The notes below the pieces were generated by a model, which was not told the origin of the DNA, did not search any database, and saw nothing but the letters and a program-made list of their open reading frames with translations. From sequence record MZ501051: a DNA stretch of 50,126 bases; one strand, given 5' to 3'. The DNA is from Escherichia phage AugustePiccard. A program made the translations under genes and the position numbers. Shown here in pieces: positions 3,226 to 45,405 of the stretch (positions within the stretch are counted from its first letter, which is position 1; each line of letters opens with the position of its first letter).

Positions 3226-4488
3226 ATGGTAAAAACAGACAGCTACGCCAATATCTTTCTCGGCGGCAGTGATGGCAGTGAGATTTACGGGAGCTTACAG
3301 AATCAGGAACCTACTATTCTGGCTTCGCTTTATGCGGATAATGCCCTGGTGCGTCGAATTATTGACACAATCCCGGAAACAGCATTAGCGGCAGGATTCA
3401 ACATTGATGGTGTTGATGATGAATCTGCATTCTGGTCGCGCTGGGATGATTTGGAGATGACGCAGAATATTAACGACGCTTGGTCATGGGCAAGGTTATT
3501 CGGTGGAGCAGCAATTGTCGCTATCGTTAAGGACAATAGAGCGCTAACAAGTCCGGTCAGAGAAGGCGCCGAGCTTGAAACGGTTCGCGTTTACGACCGC
3601 ACACAGGTAAAAGTACAAACCCGCGAGGAAAATCCAAGAAACTCGCGATTTGGTAAGCCCCTAACCTATCGCATCACCACTAATGAGAGCGATATGTTCT
3701 TCGATGTGCACTACAGCCGTATTCACGTCATTGACGGAGAGCGAGTCCCTAACGTAATGCGCAGGCAGAATGATGGCTGGGGCCGCAGCGTTCTATCTAG
3801 TGACATTCTTGACTCGATTAAGGATTACACCAACTGTGAACGACTTGCCACGCAATTACTGAAGCGTAAGCAGCAAGCGGTGTGGAAAGCAAAAGGTCTG
3901 GCTGAGTTATGTGATGATAGCGAAGGATTCGGCGCGGCAAGATTAAGGCTTGCACAGGTAGATAATAACAGTGGCGTTGGTCAGGCGATTGGCATTGACG
4001 CGGAATCGGAAGAGTACAGCGTACTCAACTCTGATATTGGCGGGATTGATGCATTCCTGGATAAGAAGTTCGACAGAATCGTTGCGCTGAGCGGCATCCA
4101 TGAAATCATCCTGAAGAACAAGAACGTTGGCGGCGTGTCATCAAGCCAGAATACGGCACTGGAGACATTCCATAAGCTAGTTGACCGCAAGCGTAATGCT
4201 GAGCTACTTCCTATTCTTGAGTTCTTAATCCCGTTCATCGTTAACGTATCGGAATGGTCAGTTGAGTTTAACGCCCTCGCTCAGGAGTCCAGCAAGGATA
4301 AAGCCGAGATTCTTGAGAAGAACGTAAACAGTATCGCAGCACTAATTGCAGCTGGAGCTATGGATACTAACGAAGCCCGTGATACACTACGAACTATCGC
4401 GCCAGAGATTAAGATTGGTGAAGGTGATATTGAGGTTGAAGAACCAACTCAGGAAGTAATCGCGCAGACAGAGGAACCTAATGAATGA
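3226..4488 (+). CDS. portal protein
   Basis: About 420 aa, follows the terminase; acidic C-terminus; RBS GGAG before ATG 3226 (the track start at 3199 lies inside the terminator hairpin). Confidence 0.65.
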   Translation: MVKTDSYANIFLGGSDGSEIYGSLQNQEPTILASLYADNALVRRIIDTIPETALAAGFNIDGVDDESAFWSRWDDLEMTQNINDAWSWARLFGGAAIVAIVKDNRALTSPVREGAELETVRVYDRTQVKVQTREENPRNSRFGKPLTYRITTNESDMFFDVHYSRIHVIDGERVPNVMRRQNDGWGRSVLSSDILDSIKDYTNCERLATQLLKRKQQAVWKAKGLAELCDDSEGFGAARLRLAQVDNNSGVGQAIGIDAESEEYSVLNSDIGGIDAFLDKKFDRIVALSGIHEIILKNKNVGGVSSSQNTALETFHKLVDRKRNAELLPILEFLIPFIVNVSEWSVEFNALAQESSKDKAEILEKNVNSIAALIAAGAMDTNEARDTLRTIAPEIKIGEGDIEVEEPTQEVIAQTEEPNE

Positions 4489-4521
4489 TGAATTTGATGG
4501 CTTTTAGTGAGGAGAATTGGG

Positions 4522-5613
4522 ATGTCTAAAATCCGCTATGACAGCGCAAAGGTGAAAGCCCGATTTGATGAAAACGGTTTTCTGGTTGATACCCCGATTG
4601 TTGCTCGCGTCGGGGTGCAAACATACTACCTTCCGGACGGTACAGAACGCAGAGAATTTAGACCAGCCTCAGAGGTCTTTAAATCTGATTCTCTGGCTAG
4701 TTATCAGGGTAAGCCAATTACCTTAGGTCATGTGTTTGTTAACGCAGACAATGCTAAAGAGGTTGTTGTGGGTGCAGTATCTGGCTCAGCAATGCGCGAA
4801 GATTCAAGCGTGATTGTTCCGCTAACCATTTACGATAAGGAGTCAATCGAGAAGGCCAGAAATGGGATCGCTGGTGAGTTGTCGGTTGGGTACCACACTG
4901 TTGATGTTGAGTCCAAAGGCTGGGGTAGCAACGAAACCGGTGAATATAAGCTGGATGGAGAGTATGGCTCACAAGATGAGATTCCTTCTGACTGGGTTAG
5001 ATTTGATGCTCTACAAACCGAAATCAAGGTAAACCACGTCGCTCTTGTTTATAAAGGTCGCGCCGGTGTGGCCAAACTTAACTTTGACGCTCATCAGGAA
5101 AACCCGTATACTACTGACGTTGATATCAATAAAGAGGATAAACAGGAAATGACAGTTAAAATTAAACTCGACGGCGCGCAGGAATTTGAAGTCGCACCGG
5201 AAATCGCTTCTCACATCGAAGCACTGAACGCAAAGGCTGACACCGCAATCGCTGAACGCGACGCACTGAAAGCTAAAGTAGATGCAATTCCATCTGAAAT
5301 CGAAGCTGCCGTTGCCAAAGCGAAAGCTGATGCTGATGCCCTGGCCGCTCTGGTTGCTGTTGCTGCTGAAGCTGGTGTTAAGGCTGACGGTCTGGATGCT
5401 AAAGGCATTAAAGTGGCTTACGTTAAAGAAGTCTCCGGACTTGATGTTTCCGAGAAATCCGACGCGTACATCGACGCGGCGTTCGACATTGCCAAAGAAT
5501 CTGATAAAATGGCTGAAGTACGTAAAGCGACTACCGCTTCCGACAAATCTGACAGCGCCGATGAGCCTAAGAAATTAGACCCGCGTGCTCGTTTAGCTAA
5601 AATTAAGAAATAA
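4522..5613 (+). CDS. prohead protease / scaffold-like protein
   Basis: Follows the portal; C-terminal Ala/Lys/Glu-rich coiled-coil region (EALNAKADTAIAERDALKAKVDA...) typical of scaffolds; RBS GAGGAG before ATG 4522. Confidence 0.55.
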   Translation: MSKIRYDSAKVKARFDENGFLVDTPIVARVGVQTYYLPDGTERREFRPASEVFKSDSLASYQGKPITLGHVFVNADNAKEVVVGAVSGSAMREDSSVIVPLTIYDKESIEKARNGIAGELSVGYHTVDVESKGWGSNETGEYKLDGEYGSQDEIPSDWVRFDALQTEIKVNHVALVYKGRAGVAKLNFDAHQENPYTTDVDINKEDKQEMTVKIKLDGAQEFEVAPEIASHIEALNAKADTAIAERDALKAKVDAIPSEIEAAVAKAKADADALAALVAVAAEAGVKADGLDAKGIKVAYVKEVSGLDVSEKSDAYIDAAFDIAKESDKMAEVRKATTASDKSDSADEPKKLDPRARLAKIKK

Positions 5614-7615: not shown

Positions 7616-9049
7616 ATGGCTAGCGAATTAAGAGCAGTAACCGCTGGGACTGCCCACGCCCTAAAGCAAAAAATCATGGAATACATTGCTGATGGTTGGC
7701 AGCCTTATGGAAGAATCCTTAACGCTGGAGCGACTAGCGTTGGTATCATCATGGCGAAAGGTACTACAGCAAGCATTAATGATGTTGATGTTATTACCGC
7801 AGATTCAAGGGCTTCTTTAGTTTCTAAGATTAACTCATCCATCGAAAATGGGTTTGAGATGTTCGGAGAGCAGGAAGTGAACGCAAGTAGATTTATCGCC
7901 TTCATGACTAAGGGTTCTCAAGGTTCATCTGGTGGCGGTGGAGAACCTGGACCAATTGGGCCTAAGGGTGAGAAGGGTGACAAGGGCGACAAGGGAGATG
8001 TTGGTGAGCGCGGACCCGCTGGCCTAGCTGGTGCGGCTGGCGCTACTGGTCCATCTGGCCCTCAAGGTTTAACTGGCCCCGCCGGCGCTAAAGGTGATAC
8101 TGGTGAGCAGGGACCAATGGGTCCAACTGGCGCTACTGGACCTAAAGGTGATACTGGCGAAACTGGTCCCGCCGGACCGCAGGGCCCAAGAGGATTGCAA
8201 GGTGAGCAGGGGGTTCCGGGCGAGGTTGGTCCTGCTGGATTGACATTCCAGGGCGCATGGGATTCTGCTGCGACATATGTGAAGGATGACACTGTAGTTT
8301 ATGATGGGTCTACTTGGTTTGCTCCAGATGCTGTAGCTGCTGGATTAGTCCCTGGAGTTGCTACTGAGTGGATTCTTTTAGCTGCGCAAGGCGCAAGGGG
8401 CGAGGATGGTCCGCAGGGTCCGGTTGGCCCTCAGGGTTTACAGGGTGCCACTGGCCCAGCGGGTCCTACTGGTGCTACTGGTGCTACAGGCCCGCAAGGC
8501 CCTAGAGGTATACAAGGTCAAACTGGCCCGGCAGGCCCAGCAGGTCCTCAGGGTGAGGCTGGTCCTCAGGGTATTCAGGGTCCGCAGGGTGTCGCTGGGC
8601 CTCAGGGATTAACTGGTCCTCAGGGTCCAAAAGGTGATAAAGGCGATGCTCCTTACACATTATTTAACTCGCAGAACGTTACATCAACATACATTGAAAT
8701 CCCTATTCCGCAAGTAACCAACACTGTACTTAGGGTTAGGCTTTCAGGTGCCAACTTTGAATATAGCGTTTTAAGCAAAGGCGGCGCCAATAGATATGTT
8801 GACTTTTACACATTCATCCCGTCATTAACTAGCTCAACGGGTAACATCTATACCGGAGGAACTACCTTGACACCAACTGGTAGCCTCTTTTTGGGTAACT
8901 CCCCCGTGGCTCTTGGATTGAGGGAGTTGACAATAACACTCAAGGAATGGGGCGACAGAACGCTAACTACAATAAAGGCGATACATCACGGCAGATCAGG
9001 TGACACAACAAGACCTTTGCAGATAACTATGTTTAGTAATAAGTATTAA
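7616..9049 (+). CDS. collagen-like (Gly-X-Y repeat) structural protein
   Basis: Two long Gly-X-Y tracts ([23 protein letters not shown]... and [20 protein letters not shown]...) between globular N- and C-terminal domains. Confidence 0.75.
7933..8643 (+). repeat. Gly-X-Y coding repeats (GGN-NNN-NNN periodicity)
   Basis: Repetitive GGT/GGC-CCN triplets inside the collagen-like gene. Confidence 0.7.
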
Positions 9050-19646: not shown

Positions 19647-22600
19647 ATGGCACAAATGATCAAAACAAACATGAGGCTTTGTGATATGGCTGAAGAGATT
19701 AAGATTTATGGTGCCAAGGGTGGTAGCCAGAAGCAGCATCAACCAGTAGAGCAGGAAGATAACCTGATTTCGTTAAACAAGGTTAAGGTTCTTTTGGCGG
19801 TTGCTGACGGAGAGGTGGATCCAAACTTCTCAATGAAGGATTTATACCTTGCTGACGTTCCAGTACAAAATCAGAATGGCACCTACAACTATGAAGGAGT
19901 TCGAGCTGAGTTCCGCTCTGGTACGCAGTATCAGGATTACATCGCTGGGCTTGACGGTGCTAACTCAGAGATTCAGGCTTCACGTGAAATCACGAACGAC
20001 ACCCCGTACATTATTGCGGTTAACAATACTCAGCTATCAGCAATTAGAGTTAAGCTATTTTGGCCTCGGCTGGTTAAGCAAGAAAGCAACGGAGACCTGA
20101 ACGGAACTACTTGCGAGTACGCAATTGACCTTTCTGTTAATGGTGGCGCTTATCAGGAATACACTCGCGGAGTTGCAAACGGGAAGACAACTACGGGTTA
20201 CGACCGCAGTATTCGTGTAAACCTTCCAGCTGAATTTGATAGCGCACTGGTTCGAATTCGCAAGATTACAGCAGATTCAACAAGTAGCACGCTGGTTAAT
20301 GGAATGCAGATTACAACCTATCAGGAAGTAATTGACGCTAAATTCCGCTACCCGCTTACTGCTCTGGTTTATGTTGAGTTCGGATCTGACCTGTTCCCTA
20401 ACGGCATCCCGACAATCTCTATAAAGAAGCGCTGGAAGTTGATTCAAGTCCCGACAAACTACGACCCGGAGACCAGGACTTACAGCGGCACATGGAATGG
20501 CCTGTTCAAAATGGCGTGGTCAAACAACCCGGCCTGGGTTCTCTATGACTTAGTGACAAATCGCCGCTACGGCCTTGACCAGCGAGAGTTGGGTGTAGAG
20601 ATTGATAAGTGGGGGCTATATGAAGCTGCGCAATTCTGTGACCAGATGGTGCCGGATGGTAAGGGTGGTATGGAGCCGCGCTACCTGTGCGATATGGTTG
20701 TGCAGAATAAAGTTGAGGCCTACACGCTAATTCGTGACATCTGCTCAATCTTCCGTGGACTGACTTTCTATGATGGCGAAAAGATTGGTATCGTGGTTGA
20801 TAAGCCTCGAAATACATCTTACATCTTCACGAATGATAACGTTGTAAACGGATTATTCAGCCGAACTTTTGCCAGTGATAAGAGCCTTTACACTACGGCA
20901 AACGTTCAGTTCGATGATGTGGAAAACAACTATCAGCAAGATGTAGAGCCGGTATTCGAGTTGGAGGCTACTCGCAGATTTGGATTCAATCCAGTCGACC
21001 TTACGGCAATCGGATGTACGCGAAGAAGTGAAGCAAACAGGCGCGGCAGATGGCTCCTGAAAACCAACCTGAGAAGCGAAACTATCAGCTTCACTACCGG
21101 GTTGGAAGGCATGATTCCGATGATTGGCGAGGTGATTGCGGTTAATGATGCCGCATGGTCTAGCAACTATCAGCTGAACCTTTCCGGTCGTATTGAGTCA
21201 GTTCAGGGATTGCAGGTTTTTACACCGTTCAAAGTTGACGCTGCGCCGGGCGACAGAATTCTTCTAAACAAGCCTGACGGAAGCCCAGAGGCAAGAACTA
21301 TTGCCAGCGTTTCGGAAGATGGTAGAACAATCAACCTTAACACTGCTTTCAGCTTTGTGGCTCAACCTGATACTGTTTTTGCAATTGATAAGGACAATCT
21401 AGCGCTTCAGCAATATGTTGTGACAGGGATTCAAAAAGCAGACTCTGACGGTTCGGATTCTTTCCAGTATACGATTACCGCAGTAGAGTATGACCCGAAC
21501 AAGTACGACGAGATTGACTACGGCGTTAACATTGCTGACCGTCCAACTTCAATTGTTGAACCTGACAGATTGTCGCCGCCTGAGAATTTAACAGTATCAA
21601 GCTACAGCAAGATTGTTCAGGGCTTATCAGTTGAGACGATGGTTATCGGATGGGATAAGGCGCCATACGCTAAAACTTACAACGTTCAATGGAGGAAAGA
21701 AAATGGCAACTGGATTAACGTACCCAGAACAGCAAGCACAGAGGTTGATATCGAGGGTATTTACGCAGGAATCTACGACGTTAGGATTCGCAGCGTATCA
21801 GATACTGAAAACGTGTCCGCCTGGTCTGGCATTGTAACCAAAAGCCTCACCGGAAAGATTGGTAAGCCACCAAAGCTGCAGGTTATAACGGCGAGTGATG
21901 ATGAGGTTTTCGGAATTCGAGTTAAATGGGGGTTTGCTGACGGATCTGGTGATACTGCTTACACTGAGCTTCAGCAAGTGGCTGATAATGGTGATGGTAC
22001 ATACAACCCAGACAGTGCTAGCCTGTTAACTTTGGTCCCATATCCTCAGTATGAATACTGGCACACGCCGATTCAACCCGGCAATGTTATATGGTATCGC
22101 GCAAGGATTATAGATAGGATTGGTAATACATCTGATTGGACGGACTTCGTCAGAGGGATGAGTACTGATGACGCTCAGAAGATCGCTGAATATATCAAGG
22201 TTGATATCGAGCAGTCTGAAGGATTTAAATACCTACAGCAGAATGCAATTGATAAAAACCAAGACATTCAGAATCAAGCTGAGGCAATAATCGAGAACGC
22301 ACTAGCAAATGACTCAGATGTAAGGCGCCAGTCTGTTAAGAATGGGAAATTTACAGCTTCAATAACCGAAAGTCTTCAGTTGATTGCTGACGAGCAGCAA
22401 GCCAGGGTAACTCAGATATCTCAGCTTGAGGCGGATTTTGACGGAAGGGTTAATTCTTTAAACACTGAACTAAGAGAGGTAATAACAACTGGTGATAGCG
22501 CTCTATCAAGATCAATTGATGATTTAAGGGTTGAGATTGACGAGAACATATCATCACAAATAACAAACATAAACACGGCTTTAGTAACAGAAGCAGAAGC

Positions 22601-23156
22601 AAGAGCCACGGCTGACACAGCTTTGTCTGCAAGGCTTGGTCAGAACGAGGCGGCACTAAACCAGAAGCTGGATGCTTTCTCTAATGCCACATCAACTGGC
22701 GTACAGTACGGAATTAGTCTTGGCCTGAAATACAACGGGCAGACTTATTCATCCGGTATGAGCATGGAGCTCGTTGGCACTGGTGGCAATGTTCGCAGTC
22801 AATTCATTTTTGACGCAAACAGATTCGCAATCAGTAACGGAATTGGTTCTGGTTCCGGTCAGTGGCAACTCCCCTTTGTTGTTGAGAATGGAAACGTAAT
22901 CATCCAAAGCGCAGTAATCGGTGATGGATCAATCAGTAACGCGAAGATTGGTAACTTCATTCAGTCCAATAACTACGTGGCAGGAAGCAGAGGTTGGAGG
23001 ATTGATAAGAGTGGTAATGCTGAGATCCGAGGAAAACTTTACGCCAACAGTGGTGAGTTCGCTTTTAACGGAACAAACAATACGGTACAGATTAACGGGA
23101 ACGGAATTACGGTAAACTTACCTGGAGGTGGTAGGGTTGTTGTAGGCACGTTTTAA
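19647..23156 (+). CDS. tail tip / host specificity protein (lambda gpJ-like central fibre)
   Basis: 1169 aa; block NPAWVLYDLVTNRRYGL is characteristic of the gpJ family; true start may be ATG 19686. Confidence 0.75.
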   Translation: MAQMIKTNMRLCDMAEEIKIYGAKGGSQKQHQPVEQEDNLISLNKVKVLLAVADGEVDPNFSMKDLYLADVPVQNQNGTYNYEGVRAEFRSGTQYQDYIAGLDGANSEIQASREITNDTPYIIAVNNTQLSAIRVKLFWPRLVKQESNGDLNGTTCEYAIDLSVNGGAYQEYTRGVANGKTTTGYDRSIRVNLPAEFDSALVRIRKITADSTSSTLVNGMQITTYQEVIDAKFRYPLTALVYVEFGSDLFPNGIPTISIKKRWKLIQVPTNYDPETRTYSGTWNGLFKMAWSNNPAWVLYDLVTNRRYGLDQRELGVEIDKWGLYEAAQFCDQMVPDGKGGMEPRYLCDMVVQNKVEAYTLIRDICSIFRGLTFYDGEKIGIVVDKPRNTSYIFTNDNVVNGLFSRTFASDKSLYTTANVQFDDVENNYQQDVEPVFELEATRRFGFNPVDLTAIGCTRRSEANRRGRWLLKTNLRSETISFTTGLEGMIPMIGEVIAVNDAAWSSNYQLNLSGRIESVQGLQVFTPFKVDAAPGDRILLNKPDGSPEARTIASVSEDGRTINLNTAFSFVAQPDTVFAIDKDNLALQQYVVTGIQKADSDGSDSFQYTITAVEYDPNKYDEIDYGVNIADRPTSIVEPDRLSPPENLTVSSYSKIVQGLSVETMVIGWDKAPYAKTYNVQWRKENGNWINVPRTASTEVDIEGIYAGIYDVRIRSVSDTENVSAWSGIVTKSLTGKIGKPPKLQVITASDDEVFGIRVKWGFADGSGDTAYTELQQVADNGDGTYNPDSASLLTLVPYPQYEYWHTPIQPGNVIWYRARIIDRIGNTSDWTDFVRGMSTDDAQKIAEYIKVDIEQSEGFKYLQQNAIDKNQDIQNQAEAIIENALANDSDVRRQSVKNGKFTASITESLQLIADEQQARVTQISQLEADFDGRVNSLNTELREVITTGDSALSRSIDDLRVEIDENISSQITNINTALVTEAEARATADTALSARLGQNEAALNQKLDAFSNATSTGVQYGISLGLKYNGQTYSSGMSMELVGTGGNVRSQFIFDANRFAISNGIGSGSGQWQLPFVVENGNVIIQSAVIGDGSISNAKIGNFIQSNNYVAGSRGWRIDKSGNAEIRGKLYANSGEFAFNGTNNTVQINGNGITVNLPGGGRVVVGTF

Positions 23157-23158
23157 AA

Positions 23159-23186
23159 CAAAAGCCCCGAAAGGGGCTTTATCTTT
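23159..23186. terminator. bidirectional terminator between convergent genes
   Basis: AGCCCC-GAAA-GGGGCT flanked by A-run and T-rich tract. Confidence 0.6.
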
Positions 23187-24120
23187 AATACATATCAGGA
23201 AGGTAAGGAAGAGGAATGCCAAGTGTAACGTCTGGCCTATTTCCAATTTCATATCTAACTATCCTTGTGCCCGTGCCGCTCCTTACATTACCACCAGACA
23301 TTACCACACCTTTGTTTCTTAGCTCCTTGTATGCAGGTATTGCTCTTGTGTTAAACCCACACCTAAGTATTGGAAAGTATGAGTTTCCTATACTCTGGTT
23401 TGAGCTCGTCAAGGTCCTGAACCCAGAAACAACAAGAGGCCTTGTTAATGTTGAAAAAGTACACTGATTGTTAGAGTTGAATATGTTTATGCCAGGCCCT
23501 GGGGTTGGAGCAACCTGCTGAAATATTATTAGATCAAGAGTTACGCTACCAGGGGTATCTCCAGTATCTTCTGTATTTATATTCGTGCAATATAGAGTTC
23601 TGTCACCATCAAACTCAACTGAGACACCTGAGTTATTCCACTTCCCAAAAGGTATTCCAGCTATTGGCATTGTATAGCTGTTTGTGAATGATACGGTTGC
23701 TGAAAATTTGCAAGTAAGAAGCCTATCCCTTGTTGTTATAGAGGCGAAATCAGTACTATCAGCAACGTATATACCTTGCCCAGTTGACGCTCTCAATACT
23801 TCCACTACAGTTCCAGAGAACTGCGTAATACGGTCATTATAAGCATTCTCCCCACCAATAGTTATCGTCCCCTGAGTATTGGTTGCTGAAAATCCATTTA
23901 TATAATAAATCTCAACCCCCCTATCAAGTTCAAAGCTATAGGCACCATTTCTTGGTAGTAAGAATTTTGATGAGCCATCGCTACCAGTTATTGGGAATGT
24001 CTTTGTAAATCCTCCGCTAGAAACGTTGAAGTTACCAGCAAAAGACAACCCCCTCATCCCTGAGGTTATCATCATTGGGTTTCTACCATCATTCAGATCT
24101 ATATATATACCTTGGGCCAT
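23185..24120 (-). CDS. hypothetical protein (possible receptor-binding or tail-associated)
   Basis: About 311 aa, convergent with J; start ATG 24120 overlaps the upstream lipoprotein stop (TAATG); Gly/Ser/Thr/Asn-rich. Confidence 0.35.
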   Translation of the reverse strand: MAQGIYIDLNDGRNPMMITSGMRGLSFAGNFNVSSGGFTKTFPITGSDGSSKFLLPRNGAYSFELDRGVEIYYINGFSATNTQGTITIGGENAYNDRITQFSGTVVEVLRASTGQGIYVADSTDFASITTRDRLLTCKFSATVSFTNSYTMPIAGIPFGKWNNSGVSVEFDGDRTLYCTNINTEDTGDTPGSVTLDLIIFQQVAPTPGPGINIFNSNNQCTFSTLTRPLVVSGFRTLTSSNQSIGNSYFPILRCGFNTRAIPAYKELRNKGVVMSGGNVRSGTGTRIVRYEIGNRPDVTLGIPLPYLPDMY

Positions 24121-24350
24121 TAATTCCACTCCTTAGAGCCATGATCACGAACAGATCCGCTAGAGCCTTTAATTCCATCGTAACGAACATCAACCTCGCC
24201 AGCCGGAACAACTACACCACCCTTCCATTTAGCTACGCATACGCCGTTAGCTTGAGTTGCACACCAACCATCCGGGCGAGGACCCGATGAACAACCTACT
24301 GTCATGATTACTACTGCGGCGATGATTGCTGATTTGATTAAGTTAGTCAT
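24120..24350 (-). CDS. small lipoprotein (Cor/Llp-like superinfection-exclusion candidate)
   Basis: 76 aa; signal peptide ending in lipobox-like ..MTVGC; own box promoter; coupled to the downstream gene. Confidence 0.5.
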
Positions 24351-24390
24351 TTTGTATTCCTTAGTAAGTTCGTTTCGTTTCGATGGAGTA

Positions 24391-24436
24391 ATAGTATCGC
24401 ATCCTTGCGATCAGTGTTTAGCAATTCGTGCTATTC
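24391..24436 (-). promoter_or_regulatory. box promoter for the Cor-like lipoprotein
   Basis: Minus strand: GAATAGCACGAATTGCTAAA, 22 nt, TACTAT, CCATCGAAACGAAACG; the box encodes the methyltransferase C-terminus N-S-T-N-C-stop. Confidence 0.6.
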
Positions 24437-25107
24437 GCCAAGAATACAGCTCTTGCAAATCCACGAGGTGTAAGGCTGCGAATTACCTTTGTCTTCTTGC
24501 TCTTGCCGCCAAGTTTCTTGTATTGGTCAGAGAAACCACCATCAACCTCCACAGGAATCGCCTCAGGCCATCTAAACCCATTACCAGACCAAATACATGT
24601 CTTTTTAGGGTATGCATCTCTTGGCTTTATTAGGTCTCTAAAAAACGGGTGTAAATCATCTTCCGGCAAATATCCACCGTACTCATATGGATGGAAAGTG
24701 TTATCAGGTTTTCGCCAAAGTGATGAAAGTACGCTGATTGGGTTTTCAATCATGTATGGCACCTCGTACTTTTCAGCCAGGTTGAAAGCAAACTTGCAAG
24801 TCTCTGCCGCCTCAATTTGAAAATTAGGATTGGCAAGACGCTTACGCTCGAAGTGTCTTGAGCCGCTCACCGCTAAATCCGTACAAGGCGGGAATGCTAA
24901 AATGAAATCAGGCTTCACATCGAAATCGAAGTCAGCATCTATCCAGGTGTTAACGTAGGTAATATTCTCATGCTCAACTTTTGCGTTTAAGTCACCGTAG
25001 CTCCCGTGGTCTGACTCATCAAAGTTGAAGCAGTAGCAAGTGTGACCAGCTTCAGCCCAATCTTTTACCGCCAGACCAGAACCATCAAATAAAGACCAGA
25101 TAACCAT
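24418..25107 (-). CDS. compact DNA (cytosine-5)-methyltransferase-like protein
   Basis: Motif I LFDGSG, motif IV FPPCT (Pro-Cys), motif VI ENP, C-terminal R.LTPRGFARA; only 229 aa, so no room for a typical target-recognition domain. Confidence 0.55.
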   Translation of the reverse strand: MVIWSLFDGSGLAVKDWAEAGHTCYCFNFDESDHGSYGDLNAKVEHENITYVNTWIDADFDFDVKPDFILAFPPCTDLAVSGSRHFERKRLANPNFQIEAAETCKFAFNLAEKYEVPYMIENPISVLSSLWRKPDNTFHPYEYGGYLPEDDLHPFFRDLIKPRDAYPKKTCIWSGNGFRWPEAIPVEVDGGFSDQYKKLGGKSKKTKVIRSLTPRGFARAVFLANSTNC

Positions 25108-25136
25108 ATTAAAACCCCTCTCGTTAAAGTGCGGCG

Positions 25137-25181
25137 ATTATACCGCGCAAAATTTATTGTTCTTTGGCAATTCGTGCCATA
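25137..25181 (-). promoter_or_regulatory. box promoter for the methyltransferase-like gene
   Basis: Minus strand: GGCACGAATTGCCAAAG, 22 nt, TATAAT, leader AACGAGAGGGG. Confidence 0.55.
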
Positions 25182-25388
25182 TCAGATTTTAAATTCTTCA
25201 TAGTTGTTGTTGATAATCAGGCAGTGATAACGGATCAATTCAATGCGTCTCTCTCCGTGATTTAAAGCATTCTCGGCGCATCTTTCCTGATACTCAGCCC
25301 AAGCCTTATCTCGGTCTATTGTTGGCTCCGTGGCGATTCTGAGGCCCTTTGGTGTGGTGATTACTACCTGATAGAGTAAGTTGCTCAT
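25182..25388 (-). CDS. hypothetical protein
   Basis: 68 aa, RBS AAGGAG. Confidence 0.45.
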   Translation of the reverse strand: MSNLLYQVVITTPKGLRIATEPTIDRDKAWAEYQERCAENALNHGERRIELIRYHCLIINNNYEEFKI

Positions 25389-25399
25389 TTCATATCTCC

Positions 25400-25669
25400 T
25401 TAATGGATATTTTCGCAGCCAGGTAGGGACTTAACATTGTAATGTCGATAAGCGAATATCAAGTTAAGGGCTTGCTCGCCTGTGCACTTAAGAGCGCCAG
25501 AGATAATCAGTGAAGACTCAGCAATGTGATTCATTAACTCATTTCTGACAGGGTCGTCATCTGCCATTAACTCTGCGTGCTTAACAAAAAGAGCGTTGTT
25601 TACCAGGATGGTCACAACCTTTTCATTGAGTTCTTTCTTCGCTTTCGCAATCTCTTTCTCGTAGTTCAT
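25400..25669 (-). CDS. hypothetical protein
   Basis: 89 aa, RBS AAGGTGG. Confidence 0.45.
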   Translation of the reverse strand: MNYEKEIAKAKKELNEKVVTILVNNALFVKHAELMADDDPVRNELMNHIAESSLIISGALKCTGEQALNLIFAYRHYNVKSLPGCENIH

Positions 25670-25670
25670 C

Positions 25671-26348
25671 TTATACCACCTTATTTTCGATTTGCATTAC
25701 GTTATTAACTGCCAGCATAACATTTCGATTCTGCTGCTGCGTTGTAACTACAAAAGACTCCATCTTAATCCGATCTAAATCTTTTTCCGCACCCTCTCGG
25801 GTTAATTGCATTACCCGGTCATGGTTATATTTTTCCAATTCCGTCAACCCCACCTTATCTTCAAGCTTCCAGCAGTACACCTGCATTTCACTATATATTT
25901 TAGAGTTTACAGCCATTTGGCCTTGCATGCTATGAATGTGGTTATCTTTCTCTTTAATGATTTTCTCGTAATGTGCCACGATGTTTAGATTTCCAACAGC
26001 TTCGATCTTTGACTCAAGTTCATGAAGCCTTCGGATTACTTTATGGCGAAGTGCGACGCTGTATCCGGTGATTAGCGTTTCGGTAAGTTCCTTGTTAAGC
26101 AAAATCTCTGATGTATAGCCACGAACGTCAGTAAGTACTTGATAATCATCATGACTCAAATCTGAGTCATCGTTATAATGTAACAATTCATCGATCATTT
26201 CTTGAGCGTCCCTCACGACGTTGCCATGTCGCTTTCCGGTTAATTCGGCAACTTCCTTTGTGCTCATCATTGCTTTTGGTTGTTCTTTGTACACTTTAAT
26301 ATTCATTTTCATCTCTCTTCTGTTTTTCATGACCCAAATCTGGATCAT
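25671..26348 (-). CDS. Rha-family phage regulatory protein (antirepressor-like)
   Basis: N-terminal block MSTKEVAELTGKRHGNVVRDAQEMI matches the Rha domain signature; coiled-coil C-terminus; start codon uncertain. Confidence 0.55.
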   Translation of the reverse strand: MIQIWVMKNRREMKMNIKVYKEQPKAMMSTKEVAELTGKRHGNVVRDAQEMIDELLHYNDDSDLSHDDYQVLTDVRGYTSEILLNKELTETLITGYSVALRHKVIRRLHELESKIEAVGNLNIVAHYEKIIKEKDNHIHSMQGQMAVNSKIYSEMQVYCWKLEDKVGLTELEKYNHDRVMQLTREGAEKDLDRIKMESFVVTTQQQNRNVMLAVNNVMQIENKVV

Positions 26349-26455: not shown

Positions 26456-26576
26456 TCGCCAATTCCACCATAAATCACAGTTACACGTAACCGATGTAAC
26501 TCGATGTATACAATCTCGTCCGCGGAAAATGGTATACGCCCTGTTACGCCTGGTTACGCTATAGTTACATTAAAAT

Positions 26577-26624
26577 ATCTATATATATCAACCTTTTACT
26601 CTTATTATTATTATTATATATATT
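26577..26624. repeat. microsatellite (AT)n-(TTA)5-(TA)n in divergent region A
   Basis: atctatatatatatc...cttattattattattatatatatt. Confidence 0.8.
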
Positions 26625-26939
26625 ACTATGTATATCATGTAACTACTTCTATGGAGTGTTCCGGTTGTAATTTTAATATCATGTGGATTTATACAGTATC
26701 TAACAATCAGCATAGCAACGCACCCTCCTTGAAGAATGGTATACACGATATACACGCTGGTTACATTGAGCTATAGCTGGTCTGGGGTGCCAAAAAGCGT
26801 AACTAGTGGCAGTGCCTACACGGAATTACAAGGATTCACGCGTAAACTTAATAAATTGATAGGCACAAACGATATGACTTATCACCTCCTAGTGCATATA
26901 GTTATCTCATCGAAAGCAAACAACCAGAGAGATAAAGAA

Positions 26940-36526: not shown

Positions 36527-36817
36527 ATGGCTACTATCTATACTGGTAAATTCTACGAATCACGCAAAACTGGTTATGAGTATGAATTAGTAATAACCCC
36601 AGAAGGTTATGTACTTGATGATGGTGAAGGGTACGCATTCGAAGTTAGCCCGACTTACAAAGATGATTTAGAAACTGTTAAAAACGCATTTGGCGAAAAA
36701 TTTGATGTTATTGATGATGGTGATGGCTACGCATTCGAAGTTAGCCCAACCTACAAAGATGATTTAGAAACTGTTAAAAACGCATTTGGCGAAAAAATTG
36801 ATGAGGTATCAGAGTAA
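36527..36817 (+). CDS. hypothetical small acidic protein with internal 32-aa tandem duplication
   Basis: Box promoter and leader; DDG(E/D)GYAFEVSPTYKDDLETVKNAFGEK occurs twice. Confidence 0.6.
   Translation: MATIYTGKFYESRKTGYEYELVITPEGYVLDDGEGYAFEVSPTYKDDLETVKNAFGEKFDVIDDGDGYAFEVSPTYKDDLETVKNAFGEKIDEVSE
36618..36809 (+). repeat. 96-bp tandem duplication (2 copies) inside ORF 36527..36817
   Basis: Two near-identical units starting gatgatggtga(a/t)gg(g/c)tacgcattcgaagttagccc... Confidence 0.75.
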
Positions 36818-44939: not shown

Positions 44940-45150
44940 TCAGATGCAATGATGTTTTTGATTGTTGCGAAATGAGCAATAAAGTAGTGAGTGAGTGAAT
45001 GAAAGATGGATGGACTACCATACAAGTTGATTTTGATTCTGCTAATCCATTTTCACGCTTACACGTAACGCCCGTAGCGCGATGTAAGCCAACGCCTATC
45101 GTTACGCGAGTTACGCGCAGCTACGCCTAGACTTACACTATAAGTGCCTA

Positions 45151-45200
45151 ATATATATATATATCTTCTTTCTATTATTATTATTATTATTATTATTATT
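45151..45200. repeat. microsatellite (AT)7 ... (ATT)9 in divergent region B
   Basis: atatatatatatat then (att) x9. Confidence 0.85.
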
Positions 45201-45405
45201 GTATGTAAGTCATGTAACGGGGTTTCCGGCGATATCTATATGTTTTTTCCTATCAGTTATAGCCTTGGCTATAATTTAAGGTATGGAGTGGGTGTTTTGG
45301 GGCCATTTGCCTCGTTACACGCACGACACGCCACTTACATTAAGCTATAGCTGGGCTAGCATACCATTTCGCGTAACGACCCCCAAAAGTTACCAAAAAT
45401 TACAC

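Follow-up and report, generated by a model that had tools for sequence, protein, structure and literature searches.

A leftward lipoprotein and receptor-binding protein gene pair convergent with the J gene of Escherichia phage AugustePiccard: a probable LptD-recognition and self-exclusion module

The DNA analyzed here (the window) comprises 50,126 nucleotides of sequence record MZ501051. Among the matches listed in a BLAST search of phages the best are Rtp, BEK, RobRod40 and the Piccard relatives (85–88%), and the genome-wide identity of the window to other Braunvirinae is likewise 85–88%. Two leftward genes, specifying a 76 amino acid lipoprotein and a 311 amino acid protein, run towards the 3′ end of a rightward gene for a J-like tail-tip protein (Table 1). 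The three products are exact matches to deposited proteins of Escherichia phage AugustePiccard (Bas01). The stop codons of J and of the 311 amino acid ORF are 28 nt apart, the genes being convergent, and the spacer accommodates a hairpin which, in the terminator scan, bears T-runs on both strands. The cassette had been described in the initial annotation as lying directly against the 3′ end of the J-like gene, and so it does.

Table 1. Features of the leftward gene pair, its upstream box and the adjoining J gene (positions in the window; a dot denotes a feature read on both strands)
Feature	Position	Strand	Remarks
J-like tail-tip protein gene, 1169 aa	19647-23156	+	QXV76158.1; Pfam FNIII-A_GpJ, Phage-tail_3, Phage_Tail_Tip
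Two-way intrinsic-terminator hairpin, AAAGCCCC-GAAA-GGGGCTTT	23161-23180	.	GC-rich; terminator scan, both strands
Putative receptor-binding protein gene bas01_0028, 311 aa	23185-24120	-	Rtp44 ortholog; DUF6453; Pfam PF20051; QXV76159.1
TAATG stop/start overlap	24118-24122	-	Lipoprotein TAA 24122-24120, 311-aa ATG 24120-24118, 1 nt in common
Shine-Dalgarno AAGGAG of the 311-aa gene	24129-24134	-	8 nt upstream, within the 3′ end of the lipoprotein gene; read from sequence
Lipoprotein gene bas01_0029, 76 aa	24120-24350	-	Rtp45 ortholog; superinfection exclusion (predicted); Pfam PF24052; QXV76160.1
Ribosome-binding site AAGGA of the lipoprotein gene	24358-24362	-	7 nt 5′ of ATG; read from sequence
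Conserved CATCGAAACGA after the box	24375-24385	-	Common to aligned copies
Conserved promoter-like box	24388-24435	-	Repeat; inverted repeat TAGCA-N5-TGCTA 24419-24433; -10-like TACTAT 24391-24396
Box cores	2712, 17840, 24418, 25164, 26436, 28103, 31947, 36444, 43156, 43588, 44852, 46465, 46742, 47616, 48038, 48605

Both ORFs are evidently coding and not chance, to judge from their Pfam matches (E-values of 1e-36 and 2e-113). ORF calling extended the larger one to a GTG codon (314 aa); the ATG form of 311 amino acids, 936 bp with its stop codon, is exactly the deposited protein. The ORF map and the sequence bear out the overlap between the lipoprotein stop and the start of this ORF, to which attention had already been drawn; a 1-nt overlap at the same place is also annotated in Rtp and JeanPiccard. 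Glycyl-, seryl-, threonyl- and asparaginyl-residues make up 39% of the composition of the 311 amino acid protein, in agreement with its earlier description as rich in these residues. The lipoprotein and 311 amino acid genes constitute one leftward operon with the box in front of it and, at its end, a terminator held in common with J. The observation on which the initial annotation was founded is thus confirmed.

The box upstream of the lipoprotein gene is a repeat. Its 18-nt core, AATAGCACGAATTGCTAA, is found in 16 copies with three mismatches or fewer in the whole window, against 0.08 expected, and in an alignment the clear copies all point the same way as the next ORF. In the aligned copies a TATAGT-like hexamer occurs at a fixed distance, followed by CATCGAAACGA, a ribosome-binding site and ATG. 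The TAGCA-N5-TGCTA inverted repeat in the core is perfect and is centered approximately 30 nt upstream of the TATAGT-like -10. The box has been kept 5′ of rtp45 in Rtp and of bas02_0025 in JeanPiccard, the DNA farther upstream differing.

A scan of positions 22900–25300 with the sigma-70 consensus made no call at the box because TTGCTA sits 22 nt from the -10-like hexamer, which is too far for a normal -35. If the start is set 7 nt after the -10, the center of the inverted repeat falls near -41/-42, a geometry from which we infer that the site of a regulator overlaps a -35 which is itself weak; by its sequence the box resembles a weak promoter with such a site. No paper containing the box sequence was found in the literature, and promoters are not discussed in the KanT1 paper. 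The initial annotation had placed a box promoter at 24391..24436. The repeat is real and oriented at the next ORF; it does not fit a plain sigma-70 consensus, and promoter activity is presumed. That the box drives the cassette is plausible from the repeat statistics and the geometry. It is a genome-wide feature and not a cassette-specific one, and its nature is the one notable loose thread.

The first 18 nt of the box (24418–24435) are at the same time the last five codons and stop (NSTNC*) of a gene for a Dcm-like cytosine methyltransferase, and the putative regulatory element overlaps the coding end of this ORF (24418–25107, minus strand). Relative to Rtp the window has four extra leftward genes (24418–26348, minus strand), which separate the lipoprotein gene from the recombination genes: the methyltransferase, 68 and 89 amino acid ORFs belonging to no family, and an Ant-like protein with an anti-repressor domain. 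The first and the last of the four are each preceded by a copy of the box. The rtp44/rtp45 pair of Rtp, of which Rtp45 was solved on LptDEM (9RPS), has the same gene order, overlap, place against the 3′ end of J and upstream box, but there the upstream neighbor is an intergenic region and a divergent gene, rtp46.

The 311 amino acid protein matches PF20051 (DUF6453) with an E-value of 2e-113 (379 bits against a cut-off of 25) over its full length, residues 4–291 corresponding to profile positions 1–290 of 291. With Rtp44 it shares 300 of its 311 residues (96%), leaving 11 substitutions, and tblastn retrieved 428 phage records, mostly of coliphages, of which Rtp was the best (96.5%). Its identity is 80% to the JeanPiccard protein and 33–34% to Dhillonvirus homologs, in each case over 100% coverage. 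These values place it inside the family as delimited in a 2026 preprint, namely >30% identity over >99% coverage to members from phages with proven LptD dependence. The size and place of the ORF agree with the positional definition of LptD-specific receptor-binding genes taken from PMC13035648 and PMC8594841.

A sequence search of the PDB returned, at full length, chain C of 9RPT, 9RPW and 9RQI (E-value=3.6e-44), which is the "tail fiber protein" of phage Oekolampad (Bas18, Dhillonvirus). An AlphaFold2 model built on 32 homologs (pLDDT 85.7, pTM 0.85) is all-beta, with no predicted helices. When this model was compared with the PDB using Foldseek, the sole significant match was again to the Oekolampad protein (9rpt_C; E-value=6e-18, TM 0.72/0.88); it was the only one of the top 50 with an E-value of 0.001 or less, the next standing at 0.3. 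The two proteins have the same Pfam family and fold, align over their full length and have in common a strongly conserved N-terminal motif, which in Oekolampad reads MGAGILIDYNDGR. They differ in that approximately one third of their residues are identical and in that Oekolampad belongs to another genus; its lipoprotein is bas18_0026. Structure prediction had been recommended as a check on the 311 amino acid protein, and the resemblance of the model to a solved receptor-binding protein, together with the full-length sequence match, favors the receptor-binding function that had been suggested for it.

The Oekolampad protein was shown by Dunbar et al. (PNAS 2025; PMC12685063) to insert deeply into open-state LptDE, where it touches EL3-5 and EL11 and has an interface of ~1,700 Å2. 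Expression of Rtp44 failed in that study, and binding to LptD was shown only for the homolog, which is ~33% identical. In the alignment invariant residues cluster at positions 1–21 and 116–125, the latter being the least confident part of our model. In the family as modelled by Black et al. (2025; PMC13035648) the conserved residues lie at the base together with the N-terminus, where the tail is attached, and not at the LptD-binding tip, and the tail-docking part of the Oekolampad protein is disordered off the virion (PMC12685063). The invariant N-terminus and residues 116–125 would fit such a tail-docking part. A virion proteomics study of Rogue1-like phages, in which only seven abundant proteins were detected, did not see the receptor-binding protein, and neither proteomics nor a tail-tip structure for the DUF6453 family was found in the literature. 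The protein is expected to be a component of the virion, with J as its presumed docking platform.

J is 33 amino acids longer here than in Rtp. An identity profile revealed a segment at ~22313–22575 (about residues 890–976) without nucleotide similarity to the J genes of Rtp or JeanPiccard, its flanks being 75–93% identical to them. According to the 2026 preprint Bas01 needs both LptD and NupG, the NupG requirement being assigned to a distal GpJ domain, and the divergent segment fits this assignment. Since Bas01 needs NupG, the 311 amino acid protein is not the sole receptor determinant.

One might go further and let J bind the receptor, the 311 amino acid protein being a non-virion membrane protein, either a moron or a fiber-assembly chaperone. 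Its label in PHROG 1265 ("membrane protein / moron") and the RefSeq name of Rtp44 ("membrane protein") point in this direction, as does the divergent distal segment of J, given its connection to NupG recognition. Such a role is nevertheless very unlikely: the model contains no helices, a homolog binds LptDE directly in three cryo-EM structures, and the alleles of the locus track receptor specificity without exception (PMC8594841; 2026 preprint). The suggestion in the initial annotation that the protein might instead be a fiber-assembly factor accordingly found no support. For the pair as a whole PHROGs offers only "unknown" and "membrane protein" as labels, and NCBIfam has no model for either protein.

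The lipoprotein matches PF24052 (Phage_lipoprotein) with an E-value of 1.2e-36 (125 bits against a cut-off of 27), again over its full length, residues 1–75 corresponding to profile positions 1–80 of 80. Its signal peptide conforms to a PROSITE-type lipobox pattern, with Cys20 and with Ser at +2. In the Lol pathway of E. coli a residue other than Asp at +2 specifies sorting to the outer membrane. The sequence search of the PDB retrieved Rtp45 (9RPS chain D, E-value=3.8e-43), to which the lipoprotein is identical at 68 of 76 positions (89%); only three changes, N35S, G44N and H70Y (window residue first, Rtp45 residue last), fall in the mature part, and Cys20, Cys30 and Cys38 are all kept. The identity to the JeanPiccard counterpart is 82%. 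The gene lies immediately upstream of, and overlaps, that of its cognate receptor-binding protein.

The mode of action of Rtp45 has been described from its cryo-EM structure on LptDE, with which it co-purifies (PMC12685063). Its binding site is on the periplasmic face of LptD, close to strands 5-8 and flanked by LptE and LptM, and the strand formed by its residues 30–35 pairs with LptD; this segment reads CATQAS in Rtp45 and CATQAN here, a difference at one position. It has a Cys30-Cys38 disulfide, and its hairpin reaches up the lumen of the barrel, moving EL4 by as much as 20 Å, which leaves the receptor-binding protein unable to attach. The proposal in the initial annotation that the small lipoprotein is of the receptor-blocking type agrees well with its 89% identity to a protein solved in the act of blocking LptD. 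Rtp45 is said to have been assigned a resistance phenotype in the original description of the phage. In the accessible literature, the original 2006 Rtp paper lying outside its scope, no test of plating or of adsorption on hosts that express Rtp45 or bas01_0029 was found. The spot assays of PMC12685063 concern lptD mutants only.

In its size class, its lipoprotein nature and its place beside receptor-recognition genes the protein also recalls Cor and Llp, and might be thought to block FhuA or some other TonB-dependent transporter. This is scarcely credible, however, as PF24052 is its only Pfam match and as a PDB search at E-values up to 1 gave Rtp45 and no relevant second match, Llp-FhuA being absent from the matches although it is in the PDB (8A60). 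The co-purification of the 89% identical Rtp45 with LptDE likewise argues for LptD as the target.

The likeness to T5 is one of logic: pb5 (oad) and Llp also consist of a separate tail-tip receptor-binding protein and an adjacent, periplasm-facing lipoprotein which alters receptor loops. Neither shows detectable sequence similarity to its counterpart here. A pb5-like 311 amino acid protein was considered and rejected, as the PDB sequence search found only Oekolampad and as no pb5 chain, and hence no pb5 fold match, figured in the Foldseek top 50. The receptor is LptD instead of the TonB-dependent transporter FhuA, and blocking, as known from Rtp45 (PMC12685063), is steric, EL4 being pushed aside from within the lumen of the barrel, in contrast to the long-range allostery of Llp. 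The Cor cassette of T1, phi80 and N15, which brings about FhuA exclusion, likewise provides an exclusion lipoprotein in an allelic locus downstream of gpJ in the Drexlerviridae; its protein families are unrelated and its receptor is a different one.

The dependence of Bas01 on LptD was established elsewhere. In the study of Maffei et al. (2021; PMC8594841) knockouts gave no receptor for Bas01 or Bas02, and spontaneous Bas01-resistant hosts carried mutations in lptD. The same authors located the receptor-binding loci downstream of gpJ, and the 2026 preprint confirms for this locus four families, unrelated to one another, which go with FhuA, BtuB, LptD and YncD as receptors.

We therefore put at roughly 0.93 the probability that the pair serves a Braunvirinae (Rtp-like) siphophage as its module for host recognition and self-exclusion, with LptD as the receptor. 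The 311 amino acid protein would be a separate receptor-binding protein, seated without covalent linkage at the distal end of J. The 76 amino acid protein would be exported, lipidated at Cys20 and, having Ser at +2, directed to the outer membrane, in whose inner leaflet it would bind LptD from the periplasm, at a place between LptE and LptM. Its beta-hairpin, pushed up the barrel lumen, would displace the extracellular loop EL4 by as much as ~20 Å, and the receptor-binding protein would then no longer be able to bind LptD, whether on cells already infected or on the debris of lysis. Exclusion by bas01_0029 itself is predicted on this basis.

The principal benefit of the lipoprotein could be to spare progeny phage from LptD on the debris of lysed cells, and not superinfection exclusion, the molecular mechanism being the same. 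A role in protection from debris has reportedly been proposed for Llp of T5. Because the lipoprotein gene is co-transcribed and translationally coupled with a structural gene for receptor binding, its product would be made alongside virion parts, which suits such a role. According to PMC12685063 factors of this type keep phage from adsorbing non-productively, whether to infected cells or to post-lysis fragments. Exclusion and protection from debris are, however, not mutually exclusive, and we regard debris as the main benefit as possible though rather unlikely.

The interpretation offered in the initial annotation is, in its essentials, supported; it had no means of knowing that LptD is the receptor or that the system had been published. 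The LptD module as such is already known, having been published between 2021 and 2026 down to AugustePiccard itself, and nothing in the window is new biology; what it offers is a confirmed annotation of bas01_0028 as LptD-binding and of bas01_0029 as an exclusion lipoprotein, for which the database labels are still "hypothetical" or "membrane protein". A module of this kind decides which outer-membrane protein the phage uses. As LptD is essential and conserved, it is of interest for phage steering, for receptor engineering of production strains and for the design of LptD inhibitors. With its hairpin in the LptD lumen and EL4 locked, the lipoprotein might also slow or stop LPS export, in which case the phage would possess a natural protein that inhibits LptDE, an essential machine. 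The few substitutions relative to Rtp45 and Rtp44, for their part, might tune cross-exclusion between related phages. We consider both ideas improbable and put them forward as speculation.

DUF6453 proteins also occur farther afield. In the Kuravirus podophage Escherichia phage O18-011 a distant homolog (3947–4978; 24% identity over 93% of the query, E-value=5e-7), labelled "membrane protein", is encoded directly 3′ of a tail fiber gene, and is a candidate for a receptor-binding protein with the same fold on another type of virion. Homologs with 35–64% identity are located on large chromosomal contigs of E. coli, Salmonella, Citrobacter and Enterobacter, which suggests that prophages may carry the same receptor-binding family.

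Three repeats were noticed elsewhere in the window. In the structural-gene region, at 8030–8626, a collagen-like Gly-X-Y tract is encoded by runs of repeats of the type GGT-CCT-CAG-GGT. Two copies of a 96-nt unit, 93% identical, stand in tandem at 36609–36800, and a diverged duplication of ~330 nt (26475–26803 and 45053–45377; 73–80% identity) includes an ATT/TAT-rich tract.
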